The notes: generated by a model from the letters alone, not told the origin. A stretch of DNA of 64,000 bases from Bacteroidia bacterium (GCA_023151275.1 JAKLJI010000004.1:4946-68945); one strand, 5' to 3'; positions 4,251 to 63,721 are shown, numbered from the stretch's first letter. Made by a program: numbers and translations.

Positions 4251-4450
4251 AACTTGCCTGAGGGGTAGAAGCGGTACCCGCCGGTAAGGGCTGATTGAGG
4301 CTGCGCGTTTTGCGGGGCTGCCGGCAGAAAGCCACCGCAAAGCGCATGCAGGCTCTTCAGCACTTGACGGGGAGTACAAGCGGATGACCCGGCCTTTTGC
4401 CTGCACGGATTTTTGTTGTTTGAGGAATTGACCTGGCAAAAGGACAGGCC
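4251..4450 (-). repeat. GC-rich about 200-nt intergenic element, copy A (inverted relative to copy B at 56081-56283)
   Basis: It shares a core caaaaggccgggtcatccgcYtgtactcc (28/29 nt). Both copies have similar ends: ggcctgYccttttg at the 5' end and cccctcaggca at the 3' end. A terminal stem ccttttgcc/ggcaaaagg corresponds to ccttttgggc/gcccaaaagg in copy B, so the change is compensatory. The overlapping ORFs are in different frames in the two copies, which argues the element is non-coding. Confidence 0.6.
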
Positions 4451-24078: not shown

Positions 24079-24084
24079 TTGTTT

Positions 24085-25155
24085 ATGGCTAAAAACACAA
24101 AAAAAGCACCTGCCAAAAAGGCGGTGAAAAAGCCGGCAGCAAAAACACCTGCCAAAAAGCAAAAAGCTGCAATAAAGAAAACAGCTGCTAAAGCGCCTGC
24201 AAAAAAGGCTGTGAAAAAGGCTGCTGTGAAGAAAGCTGCTCCTAAAAAGGCTGCTATCAAAAAGGCAGTTGCTAAGAAAGCTGTGAAGCCTGCAGTGAAG
24301 AAACAAGCAGTTAAGAAGCAGGTAAAAGCAAAACCAGCTTCAAAGCCTGTTGCTAAGAAGGCAACCAAGCCGGCCGCAAAACCTGTTGCTAAAAAAGCAT
24401 CGGCAAAAAAAGCGGCTAAGGCAGTAAAGCCTGTTGCTAAGAAAGTTACAAAGACAGTTCAAAAATCTGCTCCCGTAAAATCAAGCAAGACTGCGGTAAA
24501 ATCGGCCGCAAAGAAGCTTACTAAGCCAACTGCAAAACCTGTTGCTAATAAAGCATCGGCAAAAAAGACTGCTCCTAAACCAGTATTAAAGCCAGTTGCA
24601 GAAAAAGCGGTAAAGGCCACCAAAAAGGTTCCTACAAAAGCGGTTAAGTCAGCTAAGCCATCCAAACCCGCCAAAACGGAAACCAAAGTGGTGAAGCCTT
24701 CAGCTCCGAAAAAGGAATTGCAACCAGTGGTTAGCAAAGAGCCTCATTTTGAAGAAGAAAAGCAAGAAATACTTCCCATTGAAGCAAAGCGCTACAGCGA
24801 TGTAGAATTGGAAGAGTTTCGTGAAATCATCAACAGAAAATTGAAAGTAGCTCGTGAAGAGTTGACCAACCTAATGGATCAAATGCAGAACCCGGGTTTA
24901 AACGGTGGTGCAGATACCGACAATTCCTACAATAAAATTGATGATGGATCATCTACTTCTGAAAAGGAATATTTGAGCCAATTGGCTGCTCGTCAGCGCA
25001 AGTTCATCGAGAATTTGGAAAATGCACTTATCCGTATCGAGAACAAAACCTACGGAATTTGTAAAGTTACCGGGAAGTTGATTTCCAAAGAGCGCCTGAG
25101 GGCGGTTCCACATACCACGTTGAGTATGGAAGCCAAACTTCAGCAATACAAGTAA
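24085..25155 (+). CDS. DksA/TraR-family C-terminal domain fused to an about 200-aa Lys/Ala-rich histone-H1-like N-terminal repeat region
   Basis: The track start is TTG 24079; the first ATG is 24085. The N-terminus carries (KKAxKKAAxK)n repeats. The C-terminus contains a coiled coil plus ...YGICKVTGKLISKERLRAVPHTTL, which resembles a degenerate DksA/TraR zinc-finger region. The conserved ileS-dksA-lspA gene order supports the call. Confidence 0.6.
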   Translation: MAKNTKKAPAKKAVKKPAAKTPAKKQKAAIKKTAAKAPAKKAVKKAAVKKAAPKKAAIKKAVAKKAVKPAVKKQAVKKQVKAKPASKPVAKKATKPAAKPVAKKASAKKAAKAVKPVAKKVTKTVQKSAPVKSSKTAVKSAAKKLTKPTAKPVANKASAKKTAPKPVLKPVAEKAVKATKKVPTKAVKSAKPSKPAKTETKVVKPSAPKKELQPVVSKEPHFEEEKQEILPIEAKRYSDVELEEFREIINRKLKVAREELTNLMDQMQNPGLNGGADTDNSYNKIDDGSSTSEKEYLSQLAARQRKFIENLENALIRIENKTYGICKVTGKLISKERLRAVPHTTLSMEAKLQQYK

Positions 25156-44269: not shown

Positions 44270-44575
44270 GGAATCTTCAATATTTGGTTCTATAAACCTA
44301 TTACCCCTTCAGGGTGAAATTTCGGATTACCATTTCGGTTTCAACTGTACCACCGTTCCGGATTCAATTCTAGGATAATTCTGGAACCTGATTTGGTTGT
44401 TATTTGTAATAATAATCCCGAAGGGATTGCAGGTTTATAGAAATTAGATGGATTGGACGGCAGTTCGACCCCAAAGGGGTCGTAGGTTTATAGCAATGGG
44501 TTAGTCATCAAAATTCGACCCTGAAGGGGTCGCAGAAACCACCGCAATCCCTTGGTTTTACTATGCTTTTCCCTT
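44270..44575. repeat. about 270-bp repeat unit (one copy) carrying REP-like palindromes, on the 3' flank of the Y1 transposase
   Basis: Near-identical to the units at 45295-45690. It contains the palindromes cgaccccaaaggggtcg and cgaccctgaaggggtcg. Confidence 0.75.
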
Positions 44576-44585
44576 GGTCAATTTT

Positions 44586-45047
44586 TTAATCAATCCAATT
44601 GAATAAATACTTTTCATCATGTTCAATTTCAAATTTCTTTAAAAAGTCAATATACTCCTCCTTGAAGGATGTTTTTTTATGATGCTCTTTTTGATTTTCG
44701 ATGTATTTCACCACGGCATCAATTTGTGAATGGCTGTATGAAAATGCGCCATAACCATCCTGCCAACTGAAATTAAACTTGGAAAATTTGTTTAACTGAA
44801 TGAATTCATTGCTACTTTTCTTTATTTCCCTTATCAAATCAGAAAGGCAACAAGAAGGTTTCATGCCTATGAAAATGTGGATATGATCCGCCATGCCATT
44901 TATTGCGATCAGTTTTTGCTGTTTAGCCCTTACTATACCTGTAATGTATTGGTAAAGTCTTTCTTCCCATTCTTTTTCGATTAGGCTTTCTCTCCCTTTT
45001 ACAGCAAATACCACTTGAATGTAAATTTGTGAAAATGTTCCCGCCAT
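44586..45047 (-). mobile_element. tnpA: IS200/IS605-family Y1 (HuH) transposase, RAYT-like
   Basis: 153 aa. HuH motif DHIHIFI, and the size and architecture of TnpA(IS200) / REP-associated tyrosine transposases. Confidence 0.8.
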
Positions 45048-45230
45048 ATTTCTATTTTTTTATTAAGTCAATTTGCACAAGCTGAAAGTCTTTTTAGTTT
45101 AAAATTTATGAAGTGCAATTTACCTTGAATGCTTGGGGAAATCCAATTTTGGCTCCAATAGCTTTGAATTTAAAGGACGATTTTGAGGCTGTTGTTATTA
45201 GGAATAGCAGTACTTCAGTAAAATCGGGCC

Positions 45231-45690
45231 ATGAAATTAAAAAAGGAAAATGGTGGAGGTGATTGTACGACCCCTTCAGGGGCGTGTGAATCCTATTCGC
45301 AATTTGTCCTATAAACCTATCACCCCTTCAGGGTGAATTTTTGGTTCACCATTTCGGTTTCAACTGTACCACCATTTCAGATTCAATGGTTAGATAATTC
45401 TGGAATCTTATTTGATTGCTATTTGCATCTATTATCCCAAAGGGATTACAGGTTTATAGAAATTAGATGGATTGGACGGCAGCTCGACCCCAAAGGGGTC
45501 GTAGGTTTATAGCAATGGGTTAGTCATGAAAGTTCGACCCTGAAGGGGTCGCAGAATTCTACACGCCGATTTGTCCTAAAAACCTATCAACCCATCAGGG
45601 TGAAATTTCGGATTACCATTTCGGTTTCAACTGTACCACCATTCCGGATTCAATTGTTGGATATGACCCATTCAAACAAAAAAGGCGATC
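45231..45690. repeat. about 1.4 tandem copies of the about 270-bp REP-bearing unit on the 5' flank of the transposase
   Basis: A full unit at about 45295-45570, then a partial second unit at about 45573-45690. There is an additional REP-like palindrome acgaccccttcaggggcgt at about 45266-45284. Confidence 0.75.
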
Positions 45691-54792: not shown

Positions 54793-56055
54793 ATGGTAGA
54801 TGTTGTTCTCGGCCTCCAATGGGGTGATGAAGGAAAAGGAAAAATTGTTGATGTGCTAACCCCGGAGTACGACGTGGTTGCTCGTTTTCAGGGTGGTCCA
54901 AATGCTGGCCATTCGCTCGAATTTGGAGGTAATAAATACGTGCTCAATACCATTCCTTCGGGTATTTTTCATGAACATTGCATCAATATCATCGGCAATG
55001 GCGTAGTGGTTGATCCGGTTCAACTCAAAAAGGAAATCGAAAAGGCCTCAGCTACCGGTGTAGATATCAGTAAAAACCTCTACATCTCACAAAAGGCTCA
55101 CCTCATTTTGCCAACTCACCGCTTGGTAGATGCGGCCTCCGAAGCCAAAAAAGGCGAACACAAAGTGGGTTCAACGCTGCGTGGTATCAGCCCAACTTAC
55201 CAAGATAAAATTGGTCGTAGTGGATTGCGAATTGGCGATATTCTTTCGCCTGATTTCAACAAGAAGTACAGAAATGCTGCCAATATTCACTGCGAACTGC
55301 TCAACTCCTTAGGTTTTGAATACAACCTAAACGACCACGAGCCGGCGTTTTTTGAAGCCGTTGAATACATCAAGCAGTTTAAAATTATCAATAGCGAATA
55401 CTTTGTAAACAACCTCATCAGCCAGGGCAAAAAAATCCTGGCAGAAGGTGCACAAGGTACTTTGCTCGATATCGACTTTGGCTCTTACCCATTCGTTACT
55501 TCTTCCAATACAATCACCGGCGGAGCTTGCTCCGGTTTGGGTATCGCGCCACAGCATATTCAAAAAGTATATGGCATTTTTAAGGCCTATTGTACCCGCG
55601 TGGGCAATGGACCTTTCCCAACCGAACAGGAAAATGAAACCGGTGAAATGCTTCGCAAATTAGGCCATGAGTTTGGTGCAACAACAGGTCGCCCCCGCCG
55701 CACAGGCTGGCTCGATTTGCCAACTTTACGCTATGCCATTATGCTCAATGGCGTTACTGATTTAATTTGCACCAAAAGCGATGTGCTTAGCGGCTTCGAA
55801 GAGGTATTGGTTTGCGATAGGTATGCCATCAACGGACAAGAAACCAACGAAATTCCATTCAGTCTTCAGGATGTAAATGCAGAGCCCTTATACCGCAATT
55901 TCCCGGGATGGACAGGCGACCTGAGCAAAATCAGAACCTATTCCGATTTGCCTGAAACTTTCCGCAAATACATGAGCTATGTAGAAGGCCAAATTGGCGT
56001 TCCGGTAAATGTAATTTCGGTAGGTCCCGACCGCGAAGAAACCATCCGTCGCTAA
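54793..56055 (+). CDS. purA: adenylosuccinate synthetase
   Basis: QWGDEGKGK P-loop. 420 aa. Confidence 0.95.
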   Translation: MVDVVLGLQWGDEGKGKIVDVLTPEYDVVARFQGGPNAGHSLEFGGNKYVLNTIPSGIFHEHCINIIGNGVVVDPVQLKKEIEKASATGVDISKNLYISQKAHLILPTHRLVDAASEAKKGEHKVGSTLRGISPTYQDKIGRSGLRIGDILSPDFNKKYRNAANIHCELLNSLGFEYNLNDHEPAFFEAVEYIKQFKIINSEYFVNNLISQGKKILAEGAQGTLLDIDFGSYPFVTSSNTITGGACSGLGIAPQHIQKVYGIFKAYCTRVGNGPFPTEQENETGEMLRKLGHEFGATTGRPRRTGWLDLPTLRYAIMLNGVTDLICTKSDVLSGFEEVLVCDRYAINGQETNEIPFSLQDVNAEPLYRNFPGWTGDLSKIRTYSDLPETFRKYMSYVEGQIGVPVNVISVGPDREETIRR

Positions 56056-56080
56056 ATCAAATTCATTTTCAGATTTGGTG

Positions 56081-56283
56081 GGCCTGCCTTTTGGGCCTCG
56101 GCAACTTCATGCACGAAGTAAATTCCTGCCGCCCAAAAGGCCGGGTCATCCGCCTGTACTCCTCGGCCGGGGATTAAGCGTCTGCATGGCTGCTGTCGGG
56201 GCTTCCTGCGGTCGCCCGCCCTCAGCCGCATCCGCTAAATCCCCGTCCTGTGGGGTACTGTCTCCTGCCCCTCAGGCAGAGGG
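56081..56283 (+). repeat. GC-rich about 200-nt element, copy B (same family as 4251-4450)
   Basis: See copy A. It lies 25 nt downstream of the purA stop and immediately upstream of the ATPase/DUF4276 islet. The overlapping 71-aa ORF is judged spurious. Confidence 0.6.
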
Positions 56284-56507
56284 AAGGTGATCTTAATTCT
56301 AAAGGTGCTAGAAAATGGAAGGAATTTTGAAATGACTTCGAAAAAAAATTGCCTCATTTTTTGATGTCAAACAGGTAGTCTTGTTATTGTCCTGAATCTC
56401 TGGAGTTGCATCATTCAAAGTGGAAGAGTTTAGAATTGTACTTTCTATGGCTTTCTTTTCAAAAACGAGTACGTTAACCTAGTTTCGGGAGGTTGAATTG
56501 TTAAAAT

Positions 56508-57698
56508 ATGCGAATTGAGAGTATTACAATCGAAAACTATAAGGTTTTTAAAAACACCACAATAAAGAATCTTCCAAGGATGTCAGTTTTTTTAGGCCCA
56601 AATGGTTCAGGAAAATCCACCTTTTTTGATGTTTTTGGCTTTCTAAGCGATTGTTTGCAAAACAATGTCAACATTGCCATAAACAGAAGAGGAGGTTTCC
56701 ACGAATTAATTTCTAGGGATACTGACCATTCCAAAAATATTAAGTTTGAGGTGAAGTTTAGAAATCCTATTCCTAATGAAGATCGACCTCCGTTAGTTAC
56801 TTATTACATCGAAATTGGATTCAATCAAGGAAGGGCCTTTATTAATAAAGAGGTTCTAAAATACCGAAGAGGTCAATATGGAAAACCTTGGCATTTTTTG
56901 GACTTTTCAAACGGTGAAGGATATGCTATTTCAAATGAGGATGAGTATGATTCAAATGAAAGTAAAGAAAAAAGGGAATTCCAAAAGGTAGCGAGTCCTG
57001 ATATTATGGCTATTAAGGGTTTAGGGCAATTTGAGAAATACAAAGTATTAAGTGCTTTTCGGACTTTGCTTGAGCGTTGGTATGTTTCAAACTTTAAAAT
57101 AGAATATGGTAGGAATTTATCAGAAACAGGAATCAGTGAACATTTATCTGTTACAGGGCATAACCTCGCACAGGTTACAAAATATTTGTACGATTACCAT
57201 AGAGATACATTTAATAAAATTTTAGAAAAATTACCAAGACGCATTCCTGGAATAAATAAAGTCGAAGCGAAGGAAACAGAAGATGGAATGATTTTACTAA
57301 AATTTCAGGATAAAAGCTTCACGAATCCATTTTTATCAAAATTCGTATCCGATGGTACCATTAAAATGTTTGCCTTTTTGATATTATTAAACGATCCAAA
57401 CCCTCATCCTCTTTTGTGTATTGAAGAACCAGAGAATTTTCTTCATCCGGATTTGCTCTTACAGTTGTGTGAAGAAATACGGGAGTATGCAGAAAGAGGG
57501 GGACAGGTTTTGGTATCTAGTCATTCTCCTGATTTTGTAAATGGGGTAAGAGTAGAAGAACTATTTTTTCTAGTAAAAAAAGATGGGTTTAGCGAAATCA
57601 GGTCCGCATTTGAAGATGAGACAGTAAAAGAACTTGCAAAGGAGAACCAGCTTGGTTGGCTTTGGCGCAACAATTACATCAACGGTGCCAATCTATGA
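56508..57698 (+). CDS. SMC/ABC-type ATPase (AAA_15/AAA_21-like), the ATPase component of a two-gene OLD-like module
   Basis: The N-terminus IESITIENYKVFKNTTIKNL..FLGPNGSGKST has a RecF/SMC-like Walker A. The C-terminus has the Walker B LLCIEEPENFLHP and the H/D-loop VSSHSPDF. Its stop overlaps the start of the next gene (ATGA). Confidence 0.75.
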   Translation: MRIESITIENYKVFKNTTIKNLPRMSVFLGPNGSGKSTFFDVFGFLSDCLQNNVNIAINRRGGFHELISRDTDHSKNIKFEVKFRNPIPNEDRPPLVTYYIEIGFNQGRAFINKEVLKYRRGQYGKPWHFLDFSNGEGYAISNEDEYDSNESKEKREFQKVASPDIMAIKGLGQFEKYKVLSAFRTLLERWYVSNFKIEYGRNLSETGISEHLSVTGHNLAQVTKYLYDYHRDTFNKILEKLPRRIPGINKVEAKETEDGMILLKFQDKSFTNPFLSKFVSDGTIKMFAFLILLNDPNPHPLLCIEEPENFLHPDLLLQLCEEIREYAERGGQVLVSSHSPDFVNGVRVEELFFLVKKDGFSEIRSAFEDETVKELAKENQLGWLWRNNYINGANL

Positions 57699-58270
57699 AA
57701 TTCATCCATATTTTCGTTGAAGAACCTTCAATAAAGCGAGTGCTTGATGTGATTATTCCGAAGTTGTTACCTGAAGGCGTATTTTATTAGGTTTATCCAC
57801 ATCAGGGGAAGCAGGTCCTTGAAAAAGCAATTATTTCCGCTCTTCCAAGTCTTAGTATGATCCCAGGTTCACGAATAATAATTTCACGAGATCAAGATAG
57901 TGCGGATTGTAAGGAAATAAAAAATAGGCTTGAGCAAATTGCACAGGGCAGGCTATCCTGTCCTTTTAAAATTCGGATTGTTTGCAGGGAGCTTGAAAGC
58001 TGGTTTTTAGGGGACCTCTCTGCATTGGCTAAAACCTATCCTAGATTTAAACCAGAATCAATCTCCCATAAAAGTGAATTGCGTTTTGTAGACGAAATTT
58101 TCAAACCATCTACTTTGCTACTAAAGGTTATCCCTGAATATGCACAATTTGCTTTCCTGCCTAAAATTGAAAATGCTGAGAAAATAGCTCCTAATCTGGA
58201 TTTGAATAGGAATACTTCGAGTAGTTTTATTCAAATGATACAAGCGATTAAATATTTAGCAGAGATTTAA
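57695..58270 (+). pseudogene. DUF4276-family (TOPRIM-like) gene interrupted by a single in-frame TAG at 57788-57790
   Basis: Continuous reading from ATG 57695 gives MKFIHIFVEEPSIKRVLDVIIPKLLPEGVFY, then a stop, then VYPHQGKQ...SMIPGSRIIISRDQDSADC.... The track ORF 57857-58270 is the downstream part. The N-terminal pattern MK.I.IFVEE....L..I.P.L matches the remembered DUF4276 N-terminus. The FVEE and RDQD motifs are TOPRIM-like. Confidence 0.55.
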
Positions 58271-58434
58271 GTTGGAATAGAGAATCGTCTTCGATAATGT
58301 AATTGGTTGCTGTTTTTTTAGCAAAGGAATTACGAATAAACCTTGGTGCCAGAAGACCACTCAATTCATTTCAACTAATTTATTGAGGGAGAATTTCGTT
58401 AAGCCCTTTTCGGAGTTATCGAGAAAAAGTATGT

Positions 58435-58788
58435 TCAATGGCTGTCGGATTTCGCTTCTTGCTCGTCTCTTTTTGAATCATAAAAAAGAATACCTACCCG
58501 TTGAATGTGGTTGATAAACTCAGGGTTGTTAAGCGAAGTAAAATCAACCAAATCTACAGCTACTGGTAGGCTGCTTTCGGCACAATCTGCCAATATTCGG
58601 CTTATGGTTTTGGGTTGTAACCCGGTATTCATTACCGCCAGGTCAATATCACTGCCAATAGTATAATTTCCTTTCGCCCTGCTTCCAAAAAGATGTACCT
58701 CCTTAACATCGGTATATTTTTTAAAAATGGCATACAATTCCCCAATGTTTCGCTCTGTTAGGCCGAATTTGTTCTGTTCTTTACTCAT
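58435..58788 (-). CDS. minimal nucleotidyltransferase (MntA/HI0073-like antitoxin)
   Basis: LFGSRAKGNYTIGSDIDLAV is a GSx9-13DxD pol-beta nucleotidyltransferase motif. Confidence 0.8.
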   Translation of the reverse strand: MSKEQNKFGLTERNIGELYAIFKKYTDVKEVHLFGSRAKGNYTIGSDIDLAVMNTGLQPKTISRILADCAESSLPVAVDLVDFTSLNNPEFINHIQRVGILFYDSKRDEQEAKSDSH

Positions 58789-58802
58789 CTAATCTCATCA
58801 AA

Positions 58803-59225
58803 CTAGTTAGCTTGTGATTCATTAATTTGTTGCTGAAAGAATTCGTAAAGTGCTTTTAATGCCGGAAAGGTTTCTTGGCGTAATTGCTCTTCTGCACGTT
58901 CAAACTTTTGACCATCATAATCGTGCGATAGTTCATTTCGTAGGTCCAGCCCGTCTATTAACTCTTGCGCATAGCCAATATAGCCGCCTTCTTGCGCCTT
59001 CCTAAAGGTGTCTTTAGGCGAAGGTTTAAATGCAAAGCCCTTTTCTACTAGAAAATCTTTTGTAGTTTTCCAAGCCAGTTCCAGGGTGAATTCAAAGCGC
59101 TGAACCAGCCCATTTCGTTCCAGTTCGTTTAATTCATCTTCTGCCATAGCCTCACTCAGACGATTAAACGCTCTCTCGAAATTGGCAAATCGTTGTTTCC
59201 AGCGTATGTCTTTTTCTTCCATCAT
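58803..59225 (-). CDS. HEPN-domain protein (nucleotidyltransferase-substrate-binding, HI0074/HepT-like toxin)
   Basis: Rx4-6H motif (RNELSHDY) in an about 140-aa all-helical protein, adjacent to the minimal nucleotidyltransferase. Confidence 0.75.
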   Translation of the reverse strand: MMEEKDIRWKQRFANFERAFNRLSEAMAEDELNELERNGLVQRFEFTLELAWKTTKDFLVEKGFAFKPSPKDTFRKAQEGGYIGYAQELIDGLDLRNELSHDYDGQKFERAEEQLRQETFPALKALYEFFQQQINESQAN

Positions 59226-59495: not shown

Positions 59496-60239
59496 TTACT
59501 TGTTCAACAACTGGTACCGAATTTCAACTCGTTCCGAAAATTCAATTTCCTGAATGCTGAAGTCGGTTGAAAATTGCTGTCCGCTTGCATCAGCCACCGC
59601 TGCAGGAGCCATCCATTTCATTTCTGCATTTACAGGTGCATGCAGTTGTTCGGCTAAGTGGTAACGGATATATTCTACGTTGCCAACTTTCATTCCAGAG
59701 GCTTCGGCTAGTGCATTGGCGCGAATACCTGCATTTTTAACCGCAATCTTAATCAATTCCAATTCTGTTTTTTCTTTCAATGCCTCCGAGCATTCGTTGC
59801 CCATTGAAATGGTTAAATCGGCGCTGGTATTTTGCGAGCTAAGGTTTTTATAAACCTTCAACAAGCGCTGCTTATCCAATGGAAATTTAACAACATAACT
59901 TTGGGTTGCACTAAATCCAATCCGTTTTGCTTCTCCATTCTTTCCATAATCAAAGCGTGCATTTACCGAGAAATTGCTTAGTTTTATTTGTTCCTCAGTA
60001 AAGCCTTCTGCTTTCAATTGCTTGAGAATTTCTTGCTGCCTGCGCGCTAGCTTTTCCAAACTTTCCGATTCTGTTTTTGCATCTGCATTCAGATTTAGGT
60101 ATAAAATGGCAACGTCAGGAATTACCAATTTCCGAGATTCTCCTGCAAGTGCAATTCCTGCTGCTTGTGCTTGTACCTGCTGACTTTTTCCTGCCACAAC
60201 CAGCAACAGGAGAATAAAGAATAGACTTAATTTTTTCAT
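59496..60239 (-). CDS. SIMPL-domain (DUF541, YggE/Bp26-like) periplasmic protein
   Basis: The likely true start is MKKLSLFFILLLLVVAG, a signal peptide; the track ORF runs on to 60356. LVIPDVAILYLNL and the C-terminal ...ALAEASGMKVGNV... follow the SIMPL pattern. Confidence 0.6.
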   Translation of the reverse strand: MKKLSLFFILLLLVVAGKSQQVQAQAAGIALAGESRKLVIPDVAILYLNLNADAKTESESLEKLARRQQEILKQLKAEGFTEEQIKLSNFSVNARFDYGKNGEAKRIGFSATQSYVVKFPLDKQRLLKVYKNLSSQNTSADLTISMGNECSEALKEKTELELIKIAVKNAGIRANALAEASGMKVGNVEYIRYHLAEQLHAPVNAEMKWMAPAAVADASGQQFSTDFSIQEIEFSERVEIRYQLLNK

Positions 60240-60372
60240 GTGATTTCGTTTGAGATTATTTTGTGAACACTTATGTATTGCCTCAAGCCATTCAAATTTC
60301 ATTCCAAAGCAATTTCCGGTTGAGTGCATGAATTTGAAGGCCTCAGTAAGACCCATTTAAATTCTTTAGTGA

Positions 60373-61092
60373 TTAGCCTTTGAGGCACCTTTTGTACAGT
60401 TGAATGGTGTTTTCCAATCCCAACATGAGTGAATCACAAACCAATGCATGGCCTATGGAAACTTCCTCCAACCAGGGAATGCAGGTTTTAAAGTAGGCAA
60501 GGTTTTCTAAACTTAAATCATGGCCTGCATTCAAACCCAAACCAAGCTCTTTGGCGCGTTCTGCTGCTTTAACATAAGCCTCAATTGCCTGTTCTTTTCC
60601 TTTTGAATATTGACTTGCGTAGGCCTCGGTGTACAATTCTATCCGATCCGTGCCACATTCATAAGCTCCTTCTACCAAGCGAACATCAGGGTCTACAAAA
60701 ATGGAAGTACGAATGCCTGCATTTTTAAAGGTTTGAATCATGGATTTCAGGAAATCTTGCTCCTTATACGTGTCCCAACCGTGGTCGCTGGTGAGTTGAT
60801 TACTAGCATCGGGCACTAGCGTAACTTGGTGTGGTTTATTCTTTAAAACCAGTTCGACAAACTTTTCTTCTTTAGGGTTGCCTTCTATATTTAGCTCAGT
60901 TCCAATAACTTCTTTCAAGGCAGAAACATCTGAATAGCGAATATGTCTTTCATCCGGCCGGGGATGAATGGTGATGCCATCTGCCCCGAATTGCTCACAA
61001 AAAACGGCCATCCGAATAATATCAGGGTTATTTCCTCCTCTTGAGTTACGGATTAACGCTAATTTATTTATGTTTACACTTAATTTTGTCAT
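60373..61092 (-). CDS. pdxJ: pyridoxine 5'-phosphate synthase
   Basis: MTKLSVNINKLALIRNSRGGN N-terminus; the start is taken at the internal Met of the track ORF. Confidence 0.85.
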   Translation of the reverse strand: MTKLSVNINKLALIRNSRGGNNPDIIRMAVFCEQFGADGITIHPRPDERHIRYSDVSALKEVIGTELNIEGNPKEEKFVELVLKNKPHQVTLVPDASNQLTSDHGWDTYKEQDFLKSMIQTFKNAGIRTSIFVDPDVRLVEGAYECGTDRIELYTEAYASQYSKGKEQAIEAYVKAAERAKELGLGLNAGHDLSLENLAYFKTCIPWLEEVSIGHALVCDSLMLGLENTIQLYKRCLKG

Positions 61093-63721
61093 TCGTACAC
61101 GGGTGTTTTTTATCTTCAAACATACAAAAGTTTGTGCTTGGCATAGGCCAATATTGCTGCTAGTAATTTTATTTGCCGGTTTTCAGCCACTTTGGTCGCA
61201 GGTTAAAACAGACAGCATCCGCCAGGTTTTGCATTCAGGCAAGCTAAATACTGCTGATTATGCAGAATCAATGGTAGATTTATCCTTCGCACTTCTGGAA
61301 AATGAACACCTTGATTCCGGTTACAATACCGCTGTTTCGGCATTGGAATTTGCAAGGTTAAATAAATTAAAAGAGACAGAAGCTTATGCGAAACTTGCTA
61401 TTGTTTTTAGTCGATTTGATAAACAACCTTACGATAGTTCAATCTTAATACTTGAAGACATTATTCGGGTTCTTGCTGAATCAGAGAAAAAAAATGCACT
61501 TGCCCGCGCTTTCAACCTGTGTGGAATTGCCTTTGAGCGCCGTGGCTTGTATAAACAAGCTATACAAAACTATTACAAGGCAATGTACATCTTTGAAGAA
61601 AAGAAAGATTTGCATGGTCTGGCAGATACATATAACAACATAGGCCTGCTTTACCAAGCCGAAAAAAGATACACCGAAGCCACAGCTTTCTTCAAAAGAT
61701 CCCTCGAATTGGTTTATAAGATGGGTGGTAACCACAATTCCGAGGCCAATGCCCTTAACAATTTAGCGATTGTTTACCACGAAAATCATCAGCCTAGAGA
61801 GGCATTAAAGTATTTTTTGAAAGTTTACGAGCTCGACAAAAAAGAAAACTATCCGCCCAATTTGGCATTGAGCTACAATAACCTGGGTTTGGTTTACTCC
61901 GATTTGGGCCAAATGGATAAAGCTATCGATTACTTGCGAAAATCAATTGCAATAAAAGCCTCCTTTGGTGCAACACTTGATTTAGGAAATGCTTACAACA
62001 ATTTGGGTTTCGTTTACCTGAAAAAGAATTGGTTAGATTCCTCCGAAATCTATTTCCGAAAGGCAGAAAAACTTGCAACCACAAGTGATGGAATACCCTT
62101 GTTACTTGAGGTGTATGATGGATTGCATAAGGTGTTTCAAAAAAAGAACAACTTTAAAGAGGCCTATACCTATCTCCAAAAGTTTGATGCTCTTAAAGAT
62201 ACAATTTATCGCAAGGAAACTAGTTCCCACCTCGACCAGTTGCAATTGGATTACCTTCAGCTAAAATCGGAAAAGAACGAGGCCGAAACCAATTCCTTCC
62301 GTGAAAAGGCTCGTTTCCGTAAGACCTTGCTCATTTCGGGTGTTCTAATTAGCTTTTTAGTTCTGTTAATTATGTGGTTCTATTTGGTTAGGGTAAAGCG
62401 CGTAAATCATGAACTTAATGCCAAACAAAAGAAAATCGAGATTCAAAATAAAATTCTTCAGGTAAAAAATGTAGAAATCCTTCAAGCAAAAGAGGCGGCT
62501 GAGGAGGCCGCAAAAGTAAAGGCCCAATTCATTTCTACCATTTCACATGAAATTAGAACTCCTTTGAATGCAATCGTTGGGGTTACAAATTTGCTTCAAC
62601 AAAGCAATCCACCAACCAGTCAGCTCGAAAACCTGAATATCCTCAAGATATCTTCCGATAATCTCCTGGCCCTCGTGAACAATATCCTCGATTTTTCCAA
62701 AATGGAGGCTGGTAAGATGCAATTTGAAAATATCGAGTTCAACCTGAAAAGTATTGTTCTTGATATCCGCGATTTGTTCTCGGTTAAGGCCGCAGAAAAA
62801 GGAGTAGAACTGCTGGTAAGTTTTGACGAAAAAATTCCCGCAGTCCTCAAGGGTGATCCATTACGGATTAACCAATTGCTGATTAATCTCGTAAGCAATG
62901 CCATTAAGTTTACTGAAAGGGGTTATGTTAAGATTGAAGTTGGGCTTCAATTAAGCACGGTCAATCATTCACTGGTGCATTTTAAAATTAAAGACACCGG
63001 GATTGGAATTTCAAATCAAAAACAAAACCAAATATTTGAATCCTTTACACAAGCAGATGGAAACATAACTCGCAAGTATGGCGGCTCCGGTTTGGGATTG
63101 TCCATTTGCAAACGCATTTTGGAAAATCTGAATAGTAAGCTGCAATTGAGCTCCGAACCAGGAACGGGTTCTACCTTTTATTTTTCAATTAATTTCGAGG
63201 TTAGCAGAAATGCTGCGGTTGGAAAAAGCCAAAGAACTGCCTCATTTGAGGATTCTCTGAAAGGCAAGCGTGTTCTTATTGCTGAAGATAATATGATGAA
63301 TATCCTGGTTATCCGCCAGTTCCTGCACAAATGGGAAGTGTTAACAGATGTGGTAATGAATGGTAAAGAAGCCTACTCAAAAGCGTTAACAGAAACCTTT
63401 GATGCGATTCTGATGGATATTCACATGCCGGAGATGGATGGTATTGAAGCCACAAAATTAATCCGTAAAATTCCGGATGAACGGAAACGCCGTATACCGA
63501 TCATCGCTATCACAGCCGAAAATGAAATGCAATTCCGCCAAAAAGTGTATGAAGTGGGGATGAATGACTACATTTTCAAACCTTTTAACCCAGATGATTT
63601 AAAGGAAAGATTAGGGTACGTGCTTTACAATAACCATTTGTTTGTAAGCCAGTCTCAAAAATCACCGTCTGAAACCTTTAGTGTCTCTAATCTAGTTGAT
63701 AATACCAATGTAAATCCGTAA
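61070..63721 (+). CDS. hybrid sensor histidine kinase with N-terminal TPR repeats, HisKA, HATPase_c and a C-terminal receiver domain
   Basis: TPR-like N-terminal half, one TM helix, H-box ISHEIRTPLNAI, G-box GGSGLGLSICKRI, and a REC domain (LIAEDNMMN...DAILMDIHMP). The start is uncertain: ATG 61070 or GTG about 61103. The track start of 60968 would overlap pdxJ. Confidence 0.8.
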   Translation: MFTLNFVIRTRVFFIFKHTKVCAWHRPILLLVILFAGFQPLWSQVKTDSIRQVLHSGKLNTADYAESMVDLSFALLENEHLDSGYNTAVSALEFARLNKLKETEAYAKLAIVFSRFDKQPYDSSILILEDIIRVLAESEKKNALARAFNLCGIAFERRGLYKQAIQNYYKAMYIFEEKKDLHGLADTYNNIGLLYQAEKRYTEATAFFKRSLELVYKMGGNHNSEANALNNLAIVYHENHQPREALKYFLKVYELDKKENYPPNLALSYNNLGLVYSDLGQMDKAIDYLRKSIAIKASFGATLDLGNAYNNLGFVYLKKNWLDSSEIYFRKAEKLATTSDGIPLLLEVYDGLHKVFQKKNNFKEAYTYLQKFDALKDTIYRKETSSHLDQLQLDYLQLKSEKNEAETNSFREKARFRKTLLISGVLISFLVLLIMWFYLVRVKRVNHELNAKQKKIEIQNKILQVKNVEILQAKEAAEEAAKVKAQFISTISHEIRTPLNAIVGVTNLLQQSNPPTSQLENLNILKISSDNLLALVNNILDFSKMEAGKMQFENIEFNLKSIVLDIRDLFSVKAAEKGVELLVSFDEKIPAVLKGDPLRINQLLINLVSNAIKFTERGYVKIEVGLQLSTVNHSLVHFKIKDTGIGISNQKQNQIFESFTQADGNITRKYGGSGLGLSICKRILENLNSKLQLSSEPGTGSTFYFSINFEVSRNAAVGKSQRTASFEDSLKGKRVLIAEDNMMNILVIRQFLHKWEVLTDVVMNGKEAYSKALTETFDAILMDIHMPEMDGIEATKLIRKIPDERKRRIPIIAITAENEMQFRQKVYEVGMNDYIFKPFNPDDLKERLGYVLYNNHLFVSQSQKSPSETFSVSNLVDNTNVNP

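Follow-up and report, generated by a model that had tools for sequence, protein, structure and literature searches.

A gene of the DUF4276 family at positions 57695 to 58270 of a 64,000-nucleotide stretch of Bacteroidia DNA (the window) is interrupted near its beginning by one in-frame TAG, and the question is what this codon means. It could mark a dead gene, an error in the sequence of a living one, a site at which translation continues, or the upstream border of a shorter protein with a role of its own. A sequence-only reading of the window had raised the first three options, with readthrough as the least likely. The evidence assembled below makes it very probable that the segment is a pseudogene, in which a fixed nonsense mutation has disabled the Toprim-like effector within a decaying HEC-01-type candidate cassette.

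A single gene interrupted at codon 32

The upstream neighbor of the interrupted gene (56508–57698, plus strand) encodes an intact ABC-type ATPase of 396 aa. It matches Pfam AAA_21 (7e-30) and AAA_15 (1.5e-20) as well as the PADLOC HEC-01 model, and carries the Walker A motif GPNGSGKST at residues 30–38 and the Walker B motif CIEEPE at 304–309. Its stop codon TGA (57696–57698) overlaps the ATG (57695–57697) of the DUF4276 gene on the same strand, and the resulting ATGA (57695–57698) suggests translational coupling of the two genes. From this ATG, 31 codons (57695–57787) encode MKFIHIFVEEPSIKRVLDVIIPKLLPEGVFY and are followed by the TAG at 57788–57790; the frame then carries on as VYPHQGKQVLEK..., past an ATG at 57857, to a TAA at 58268–58270. 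Every coordinate that the sequence-only reading had given proved correct, as did its account of the overlapping start, the 31 codons, the TAG, and the continuation through VYPHQGKQ into a 137-aa ORF. That ORF (57857–58270, plus strand) is the annotated product, recorded at NCBI as the ‘DUF4276 family protein’ MCK6610429.1, and its ATG is codon 55 of the longer frame.

When the stop is masked, the reading comprises 191 residues and matches Pfam DUF4276 (PF14103) over profile positions 1–191 of 192 with 33.1 bits, the gathering cut-off being 30.2 bits; the 137-aa ORF alone scores 32.4 bits over positions 75–191. The joined protein also aligns gaplessly with homologues of about 190 aa, with identities of up to 67%. 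Given the full-length profile match and the gapless alignment, the segment 57695–58270 is a single gene cut by a single stop and not two chance ORFs. As encoded in the window, with TAG at codon 32, it lacks the uninterrupted coding sequence that would make it a functional member of the family.

PMC12065111 assigns DUF4276 to the Toprim superfamily and describes a Glu in the loop that joins strand 1 to helix 1, together with a DxD that follows strand 3; the same placement, with a catalytic Glu and the DxD motif, is given in bioRxiv 10.1101/2024.01.29.577857. Both elements are found in the joined reading. According to the translation, the alignments, and the AlphaFold2 model of a homologue, the first 31 codons cover strand 1, E9, E10, helix 1, and the beginning of strand 2, while the remainder (codons 33–191 and the TAA, 57791–58270) encodes H36-Q-G-K-Q, D66-Q-D68, C72, R94, C97, and ELESWFLGD. 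Across 110 full-length homologues, E9, E10, H36, G38, K39, D66, and D68 are invariant. In the model (homologue P0003, 65% identical, pLDDT 96.4), strand 1 spans residues 2–8, the helix 11–23, strand 2 29–35, strand 3 59–66, and strand 4 91–96, and on these positions the TAG at codon 32 is predicted to fall within strand 2, with the Glu pair before it and the DxD after it. The alignments thereby bear out the earlier suggestion that the interruption lies between the Glu-bearing strand and the DxD segment, with E9/E10 upstream and D66-Q-D68 downstream. A Foldseek comparison of the DUF4276 model with the PDB gave no significant match, and a profile search of PDB sequences for DUF4276 returned nothing.

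The cassette has a G+C content of 35%, compared with 41% for the window. Downstream, a minus-strand pair (58435–59225) adjoins it, consisting of a nucleotidyltransferase of 117 aa and an NTase-substrate-binding/HEPN-like protein of 140 aa, with matches to Pfam Polbeta (6e-16) and NTase_sub_bind (1.3e-27); cassette and pair make up a small island bounded by purA and pdxJ. A GC-rich element at 56075–56290, located between purA and the ATPase gene, reaches 63% G+C in the 41% window and has no match in Rfam. A second copy of this element, 72% identical and inverted, lies 52 kb away on the opposite strand at 4255–4399. Two further repeat regions occur elsewhere in the window. Direct repeats of 254 nt (two copies, 89% identity) and 94 nt (three copies, 85–90%) occupy 44284–45663, which holds no ORF of at least 200 codons. 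Tandem-like repeats at 24105–24573, within the ORF 24079–25155, appear by eye to consist of AAG/GCN/CCN-rich units encoding a Lys/Ala/Pro-rich peptide.

Recurrence and history of the lesion

A sequencing or assembly error hiding an intact gene would be a natural concern, as the window derives from a metagenome-assembled genome and the two assemblies fully identical to it (L004/L005, SRR176655xx, 100%) may share its reads. The TAG at codon 32 is present in these and also in L001–3 (SRR36443198/199/211), which are 98.1% identical to the window over 12 kb, and in L097 (ERR12320354), which is 99.3% identical. Because it recurs in separate sequencing projects, in haplotypes distinguished from the window by other sites, the TAG can be taken as genuine on the assembled sequences and an artefact as excluded, which refutes the error option of the sequence-only reading. 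The exact 137-aa product is moreover on record in both NCBI and Logan assemblies. An error is also contradicted by the site itself, which is no long homopolymer, by two more non-conservative changes at conserved positions of the same allele, and by the lack of any intact allele in about 15 billion catalogued proteins; the probability left to it is vanishingly small. Divergence between strains is patchy: of the 231 differences that separate L001–3 from the window, 171 lie within 1.5 kb (61500–63000), where a TPR/histidine-kinase hybrid gene is located (60968–63721), and a smaller patch lies at 55500–56500.

The homologues of the gene carry a sense codon at the interrupted position. At position 32, the 110 homologues have mostly Arg, Gln, Asn, or Lys (R65, Q17, N10, K6, S4, H2, E2, T1) and never a stop. 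Closer relatives are provided by a sister clade known from contigs L091–95 and L098/99, which were assembled in four JGI metagenomes, two Logan runs, and an NCBI MAG, and whose cassette is 99.5% identical to that of the window while the flanks reach just about 95%. At the lesion site, the sister clade reads GGCGTATTTTAGTAAGGTTTATCC and the window GGCGTATTTTATTAGGTTTATCC; the sister sequence is one base longer, so its DUF4276 gene is frameshifted. In the downstream frame, its codon 32 is AAG (Lys). The simplest common ancestor would have read GTA TTT TAT AAG GTT (V-F-Y-K-V), with Y31 and K32 both acceptable in the family. From such a sequence, the window clade would require only A57788T, converting the Lys codon AAG into TAG, and the sister clade one extra G, placed between 57786 and 57787. 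Calls of 129 and 81 aa also belong to the 90% cluster of the 137-aa product, whose representative is the 137-aa ORF itself.

Other changes accompany the stop. Relative to the sister clade, the window clade carries D41V (GAC>GTC, 57815–57817) and R55M (AGG>ATG). Position 41 is near-invariant (109 of the 110 homologues have Asp and one has Glu), and position 55 is otherwise Lys (80), Arg (28), or Gln (2); the annotated 137-aa ORF owes its ATG to R55M. In L001–3 and L097, a 1-bp deletion at 56629 additionally shifts the ATPase frame at codon 41 and truncates the protein after about 45 residues, just beyond Walker A. Most members of the sister clade add P22Q, and one of them (L094) has E307V in the Walker B motif CIEEPE of its ATPase. 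No intact allele is on record; the best full-length match is 67% identical. Pattern scans of JGI metagenome DNA returned nothing for a first pattern and just the known frameshifted contig for a gapped one. The TAG is common to at least three haplotypes, two of which subsequently lost the ATPase as well, and is neither private nor very recent. With this refinement, the evidence supports the proposal that a nonsense mutation had inactivated the nuclease partner.

The distribution of the differences between the two clades is uneven. Four of the five fixed in-gene differences fall within 72 nt at the lesion (p ~0.001 in a simulation assuming a uniform distribution), the lesions of the two clades lie 1–2 nt apart, and the three substitutions of the window clade are all to T. 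Possible explanations of the clustering include a short tract of recombination, a burst of mutation, and selection silencing a costly nuclease. In the C-terminal 137 codons, the differences between clades are synonymous only (58030, and 57898 in L001–3), with the exception of Q84R in L097; such sites are too few to reveal relaxed selection.

Variation is also seen around the cassette. Upstream of the ATPase start, the window differs from most haplotypes of both clades by substitutions at 56401, 56444, 56473, and 56486 (L091 and L095 being left out of the comparison at 56401), which could represent a change in the promoter region. In the sister contigs L091 and L095, 131 nt matching window positions 56148–56278, within the GC-rich element, form a two-copy direct repeat, and between the copies lies about 1 kb with a response-regulator gene and an HTH gene, both missing from the window. 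Between 59000 and 60400, around a SIMPL-domain gene on the minus strand (59496–60356), window and sister clade differ by up to 55 positions per 200 nt. This divergence beside a 99.5%-identical cassette points to a recombination patch or to diversifying selection on a secreted or periplasmic protein.

The short or garbled entries in the list of protein matches turned out to be independent wrecks of the DUF4276 gene. L006–9 have a TAG at codon 25 beside an intact ATPase. L010 has an internal deletion and a frameshift near codon 136, with an ATPase that is present and cut by the contig edge. L101/102 combine a TAG at codon 19 with a +A frameshift, and their ATPase is mostly deleted. L100 and L103 retain 5′-truncated remnants, the former without a visible ATPase on a contig that begins 105 nt upstream, the latter without an ATPase upstream. 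In view of these independent wrecks, decay of the cassette is recurrent and ordinary.

Early in-frame TAGs thus occur in two unrelated lineages besides that of the window (L006, 2836–3411, and L101, 328–901), and all three nonsense lesions of the subfamily are TAG. Single-step mutation would be expected to yield TAA, TAG, and TGA in the proportions 39:24:15, which gives p ~0.03 with n = 3. On present evidence, neither this pattern nor the proximity of the lesions rises above chance plus ascertainment. Their N-terminal clustering was discounted as a signal, given that the protein list shows only lesions that leave a long C-terminal ORF. Parallel evolution of Met at position 55 or 56 in the window and L006 was likewise discounted, as Met 56 is an ordinary variant of the family (11 of 110 homologues) and a start codon is needed for detection.

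The same observations bear on the idea that translation from 57857 yields a C-terminal fragment of 137 aa with a non-catalytic function, for example in binding or modulating the ATPase. Its start codon arose through R55M on the very branch that carries the nonsense mutation, the clade differences within its codons are synonymous, and L006 presents a similar arrangement, with a TAG upstream and a Met at position 56. The fragment would, however, lack strands 1 and 2, the former being central to the sheet, along with the invariant residues E9, E10, H36, G38, and K39, and with these elements missing its stable folding is unlikely. Furthermore, the sister clade has no such ATG, its remnant being called at 81 or 129 aa; cases with Met would be found by ascertainment, and the substitutions are too few for selection to be measured. 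A functional fragment is therefore considered improbable.

Decoding of the TAG codon

Whether the TAG might be translated is a separate matter, for which the genetic code of the organism, the RNA around the site, and its conservation are all relevant. Reassignment of the codon was ruled out, since TAG terminates 5 of the 39 long ORFs in the window; the comparison with homologues covered the split at 57788. A listing of TAGs flanked on either side by an open frame gave three others in the window; the homologue comparison was confined to the one at 57788, the only in-frame TAG of the window shown to be spanned by homologues. A tRNA scan of the window found tRNA-Leu(tag) alone and no suppressor tRNA within it. 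The region 55800–58600 has no match in Rfam, and the predicted fold of 57770–57900 is weaker than that of shuffled sequences (z = +1.48), with no stable structure predicted 3′ of the TAG; neither result points to an RNA element at or after the codon. A conserved recoding site in the family was excluded as well: an interruption, whether stop or frameshift, was found in 0 of the 80 closest loci from species-representative genomes and in 0 of the 110 full-length homologues. Neither a conserved stop nor the use of TAG as a sense codon, one of which programmed readthrough or reassignment would entail, was found. The readthrough option of the sequence-only reading is left without support by a TAG that acts as a normal stop, homologues that have none, the lack of RNA structure, and D41V.

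A less regulated form of decoding, in which leaky readthrough or a suppressor tRNA (for instance from a phage translating TAG as Gln) yields the full-length nuclease at a low or conditional level, can still be weighed against the pseudogene. TAG-to-Gln recoding by Bacteroidota phages equipped with suppressor tRNAs has been documented (PMC9523058; bioRxiv 10.1101/2021.08.26.457843). Gln occupies position 32 in 17 of 110 homologues, the three independent nonsense lesions of the subfamily are all TAG and lie within the N-terminal 32 codons, and both the window and L006 retain an intact ATPase partner. However, the position of the stop varies among the three unrelated lineages (codons 19, 25, and 32) and is seen in none of the 80 loci or 110 proteins, and the N-terminal location is in part ascertainment, only lesions that leave a long C-terminal ORF being detectable. 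The allele of the window has also lost a near-invariant Asp through D41V, the ATPase is frameshifted in relatives that share its TAG, a frameshift takes the place of the TAG in the sister clade, and L101 is plainly dead. With no stabilizing RNA structure (z = +1.48) and no suppressor tRNA in the window, decoding of any kind is very unlikely.

In one specific version, the TAG would act as a conditional gate. Decoding of UAG, for instance by a tRNA-Gln(CUA) suppressor introduced by a TAG-recoding Bacteroidota phage, would be required to complete the Toprim effector, and the recoding machinery of the phage itself would turn on a nuclease of abortive infection. The idea is kept open because all three nonsense lesions are TAG, the ATPase is intact in two of the three, and Gln is tolerated at position 32, and it is nevertheless regarded as extremely unlikely.

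The sister clade raises a related question, as its lesion site resembles a +1 frameshift site of the prfB type. The sequence GTA TTT TAG TAA G would allow tRNA-Phe to slip from UUU to UUU at a hungry UAG, and a +1 slip at TTT-TAG-T would yield a product of exactly the family length. It is conserved in no homologue, and it belongs to the sister haplotype and not to the window. The sister clade also carries P22Q and, in the ATPase, E307V, and a plain 1-nt insertion suffices to explain it. Beyond this formal likeness to prfB, nothing supports programmed frameshifting in the sister clade.

Probable loss of the effector and relation to known systems

The preferred reading, a pseudogene, is supported by a stop that several strains share, that homologues lack, and that stands alongside further damaging changes. 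Mechanistically, the single A>T substitution would stop ATPase-coupled translation, which begins at the ATGA overlap, after a 31-residue peptide. The sole downstream in-frame start, the new ATG at 57857, would give a fragment without strands 1 and 2, the Glu-Glu pair, and HQGKQD. No active nuclease could then be made, and the cassette would be non-functional although the ATPase is intact in the window strain. PARIS, OLD, and Gabija suggest by analogy that the pair, when intact, would have combined an ATPase sensor with a Toprim nuclease effector. Loss of the effector may have been neutral decay or may have been favored because the nuclease is costly. The effector was struck first and the ATPase afterwards. 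Some observations fit the pseudogene less readily, namely the intact ATPase of the window, the nearly exclusively synonymous differences in the C-terminal 137 codons, and the three nonsense lesions that are all TAG (p ~0.03, n = 3). Likewise, the 72-nt clustering of differences and the lesions 1–2 nt apart are not predicted by simple random decay.

On this reading, the public 137-aa ‘DUF4276 family protein’ is its tail, and the annotation should read pseudogene. The HEC-01-type cassette should accordingly not be counted as an active defense system of the source organism. The locus offers a small, clean example of the death of a cassette, in which the effector goes first and does so in two ways in two sister clades. 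Loss of the effector followed by the ATPase is the order expected if the nuclease effector is the costly part.

Among known systems, HEC-01 is the closest. In the description by Payne et al. (bioRxiv 10.1101/2024.01.29.577857), it pairs an ABC ATPase with a TOPRIM-like protein. The window cassette shares with it the gene pair, the gene order, and profile matches over full models: the ATPase matches PADLOC model PDLC04144 with 2.5e-167 over positions 1–393 of 395, and the joined DUF4276 protein matches PDLC04143 with 2e-36 (full model) and PDLC04202 with 1.7e-35. The AriA, GajA, Old, and mad3 models of PADLOC match far more weakly. With an adjacent ATPase and TOPRIM-like gene that both match their models, the two genes are assigned to the HEC-01 type as a candidate anti-phage cassette. 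A start/stop overlap (ATGA, GTGA, or TAATG/TGATG) occurs in at least 47 of 79 homologous loci, and such an overlap with the ATPase is typical of the DUF4276 family. The window differs from HEC-01 in that its TOPRIM-like gene is broken by the TAG. Even an intact HEC-01 is merely a candidate for defense, since its representative protected E. coli against 0 of the phages tried (bioRxiv 10.1101/2024.01.29.577857).

The DUF4276 Pfam domain also occurs in NsnC of Menshen and Mad4 of MADS, and the Glu and the DxD are both present in the joined reading of the window. In contrast to these proteins, the DUF4276 protein of the window stands alone, with 191 aa, beside an HEC-01-type ATPase. The MADS system differs further, as the window ATPase matches mad3 with just 3.3e-31 and the methyltransferase context is absent.

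PARIS (AriA + AriB) likewise pairs an AAA_15/AAA_21 ABC ATPase with a small Toprim effector, and the PARIS phylogeny (PMC11464382) includes DUF4276 as a partner of AAA_15/21 ATPases. The effector, however, is DUF4276 in the window and DUF4435 in AriB, and the window ATPase matches the AriA models with 2e-26 as opposed to 2.5e-167 for HEC-01, which places the cassette outside PARIS. Judged by analogy, PARIS nonetheless provides the likeliest model of the mode of action that the pair would have when intact.
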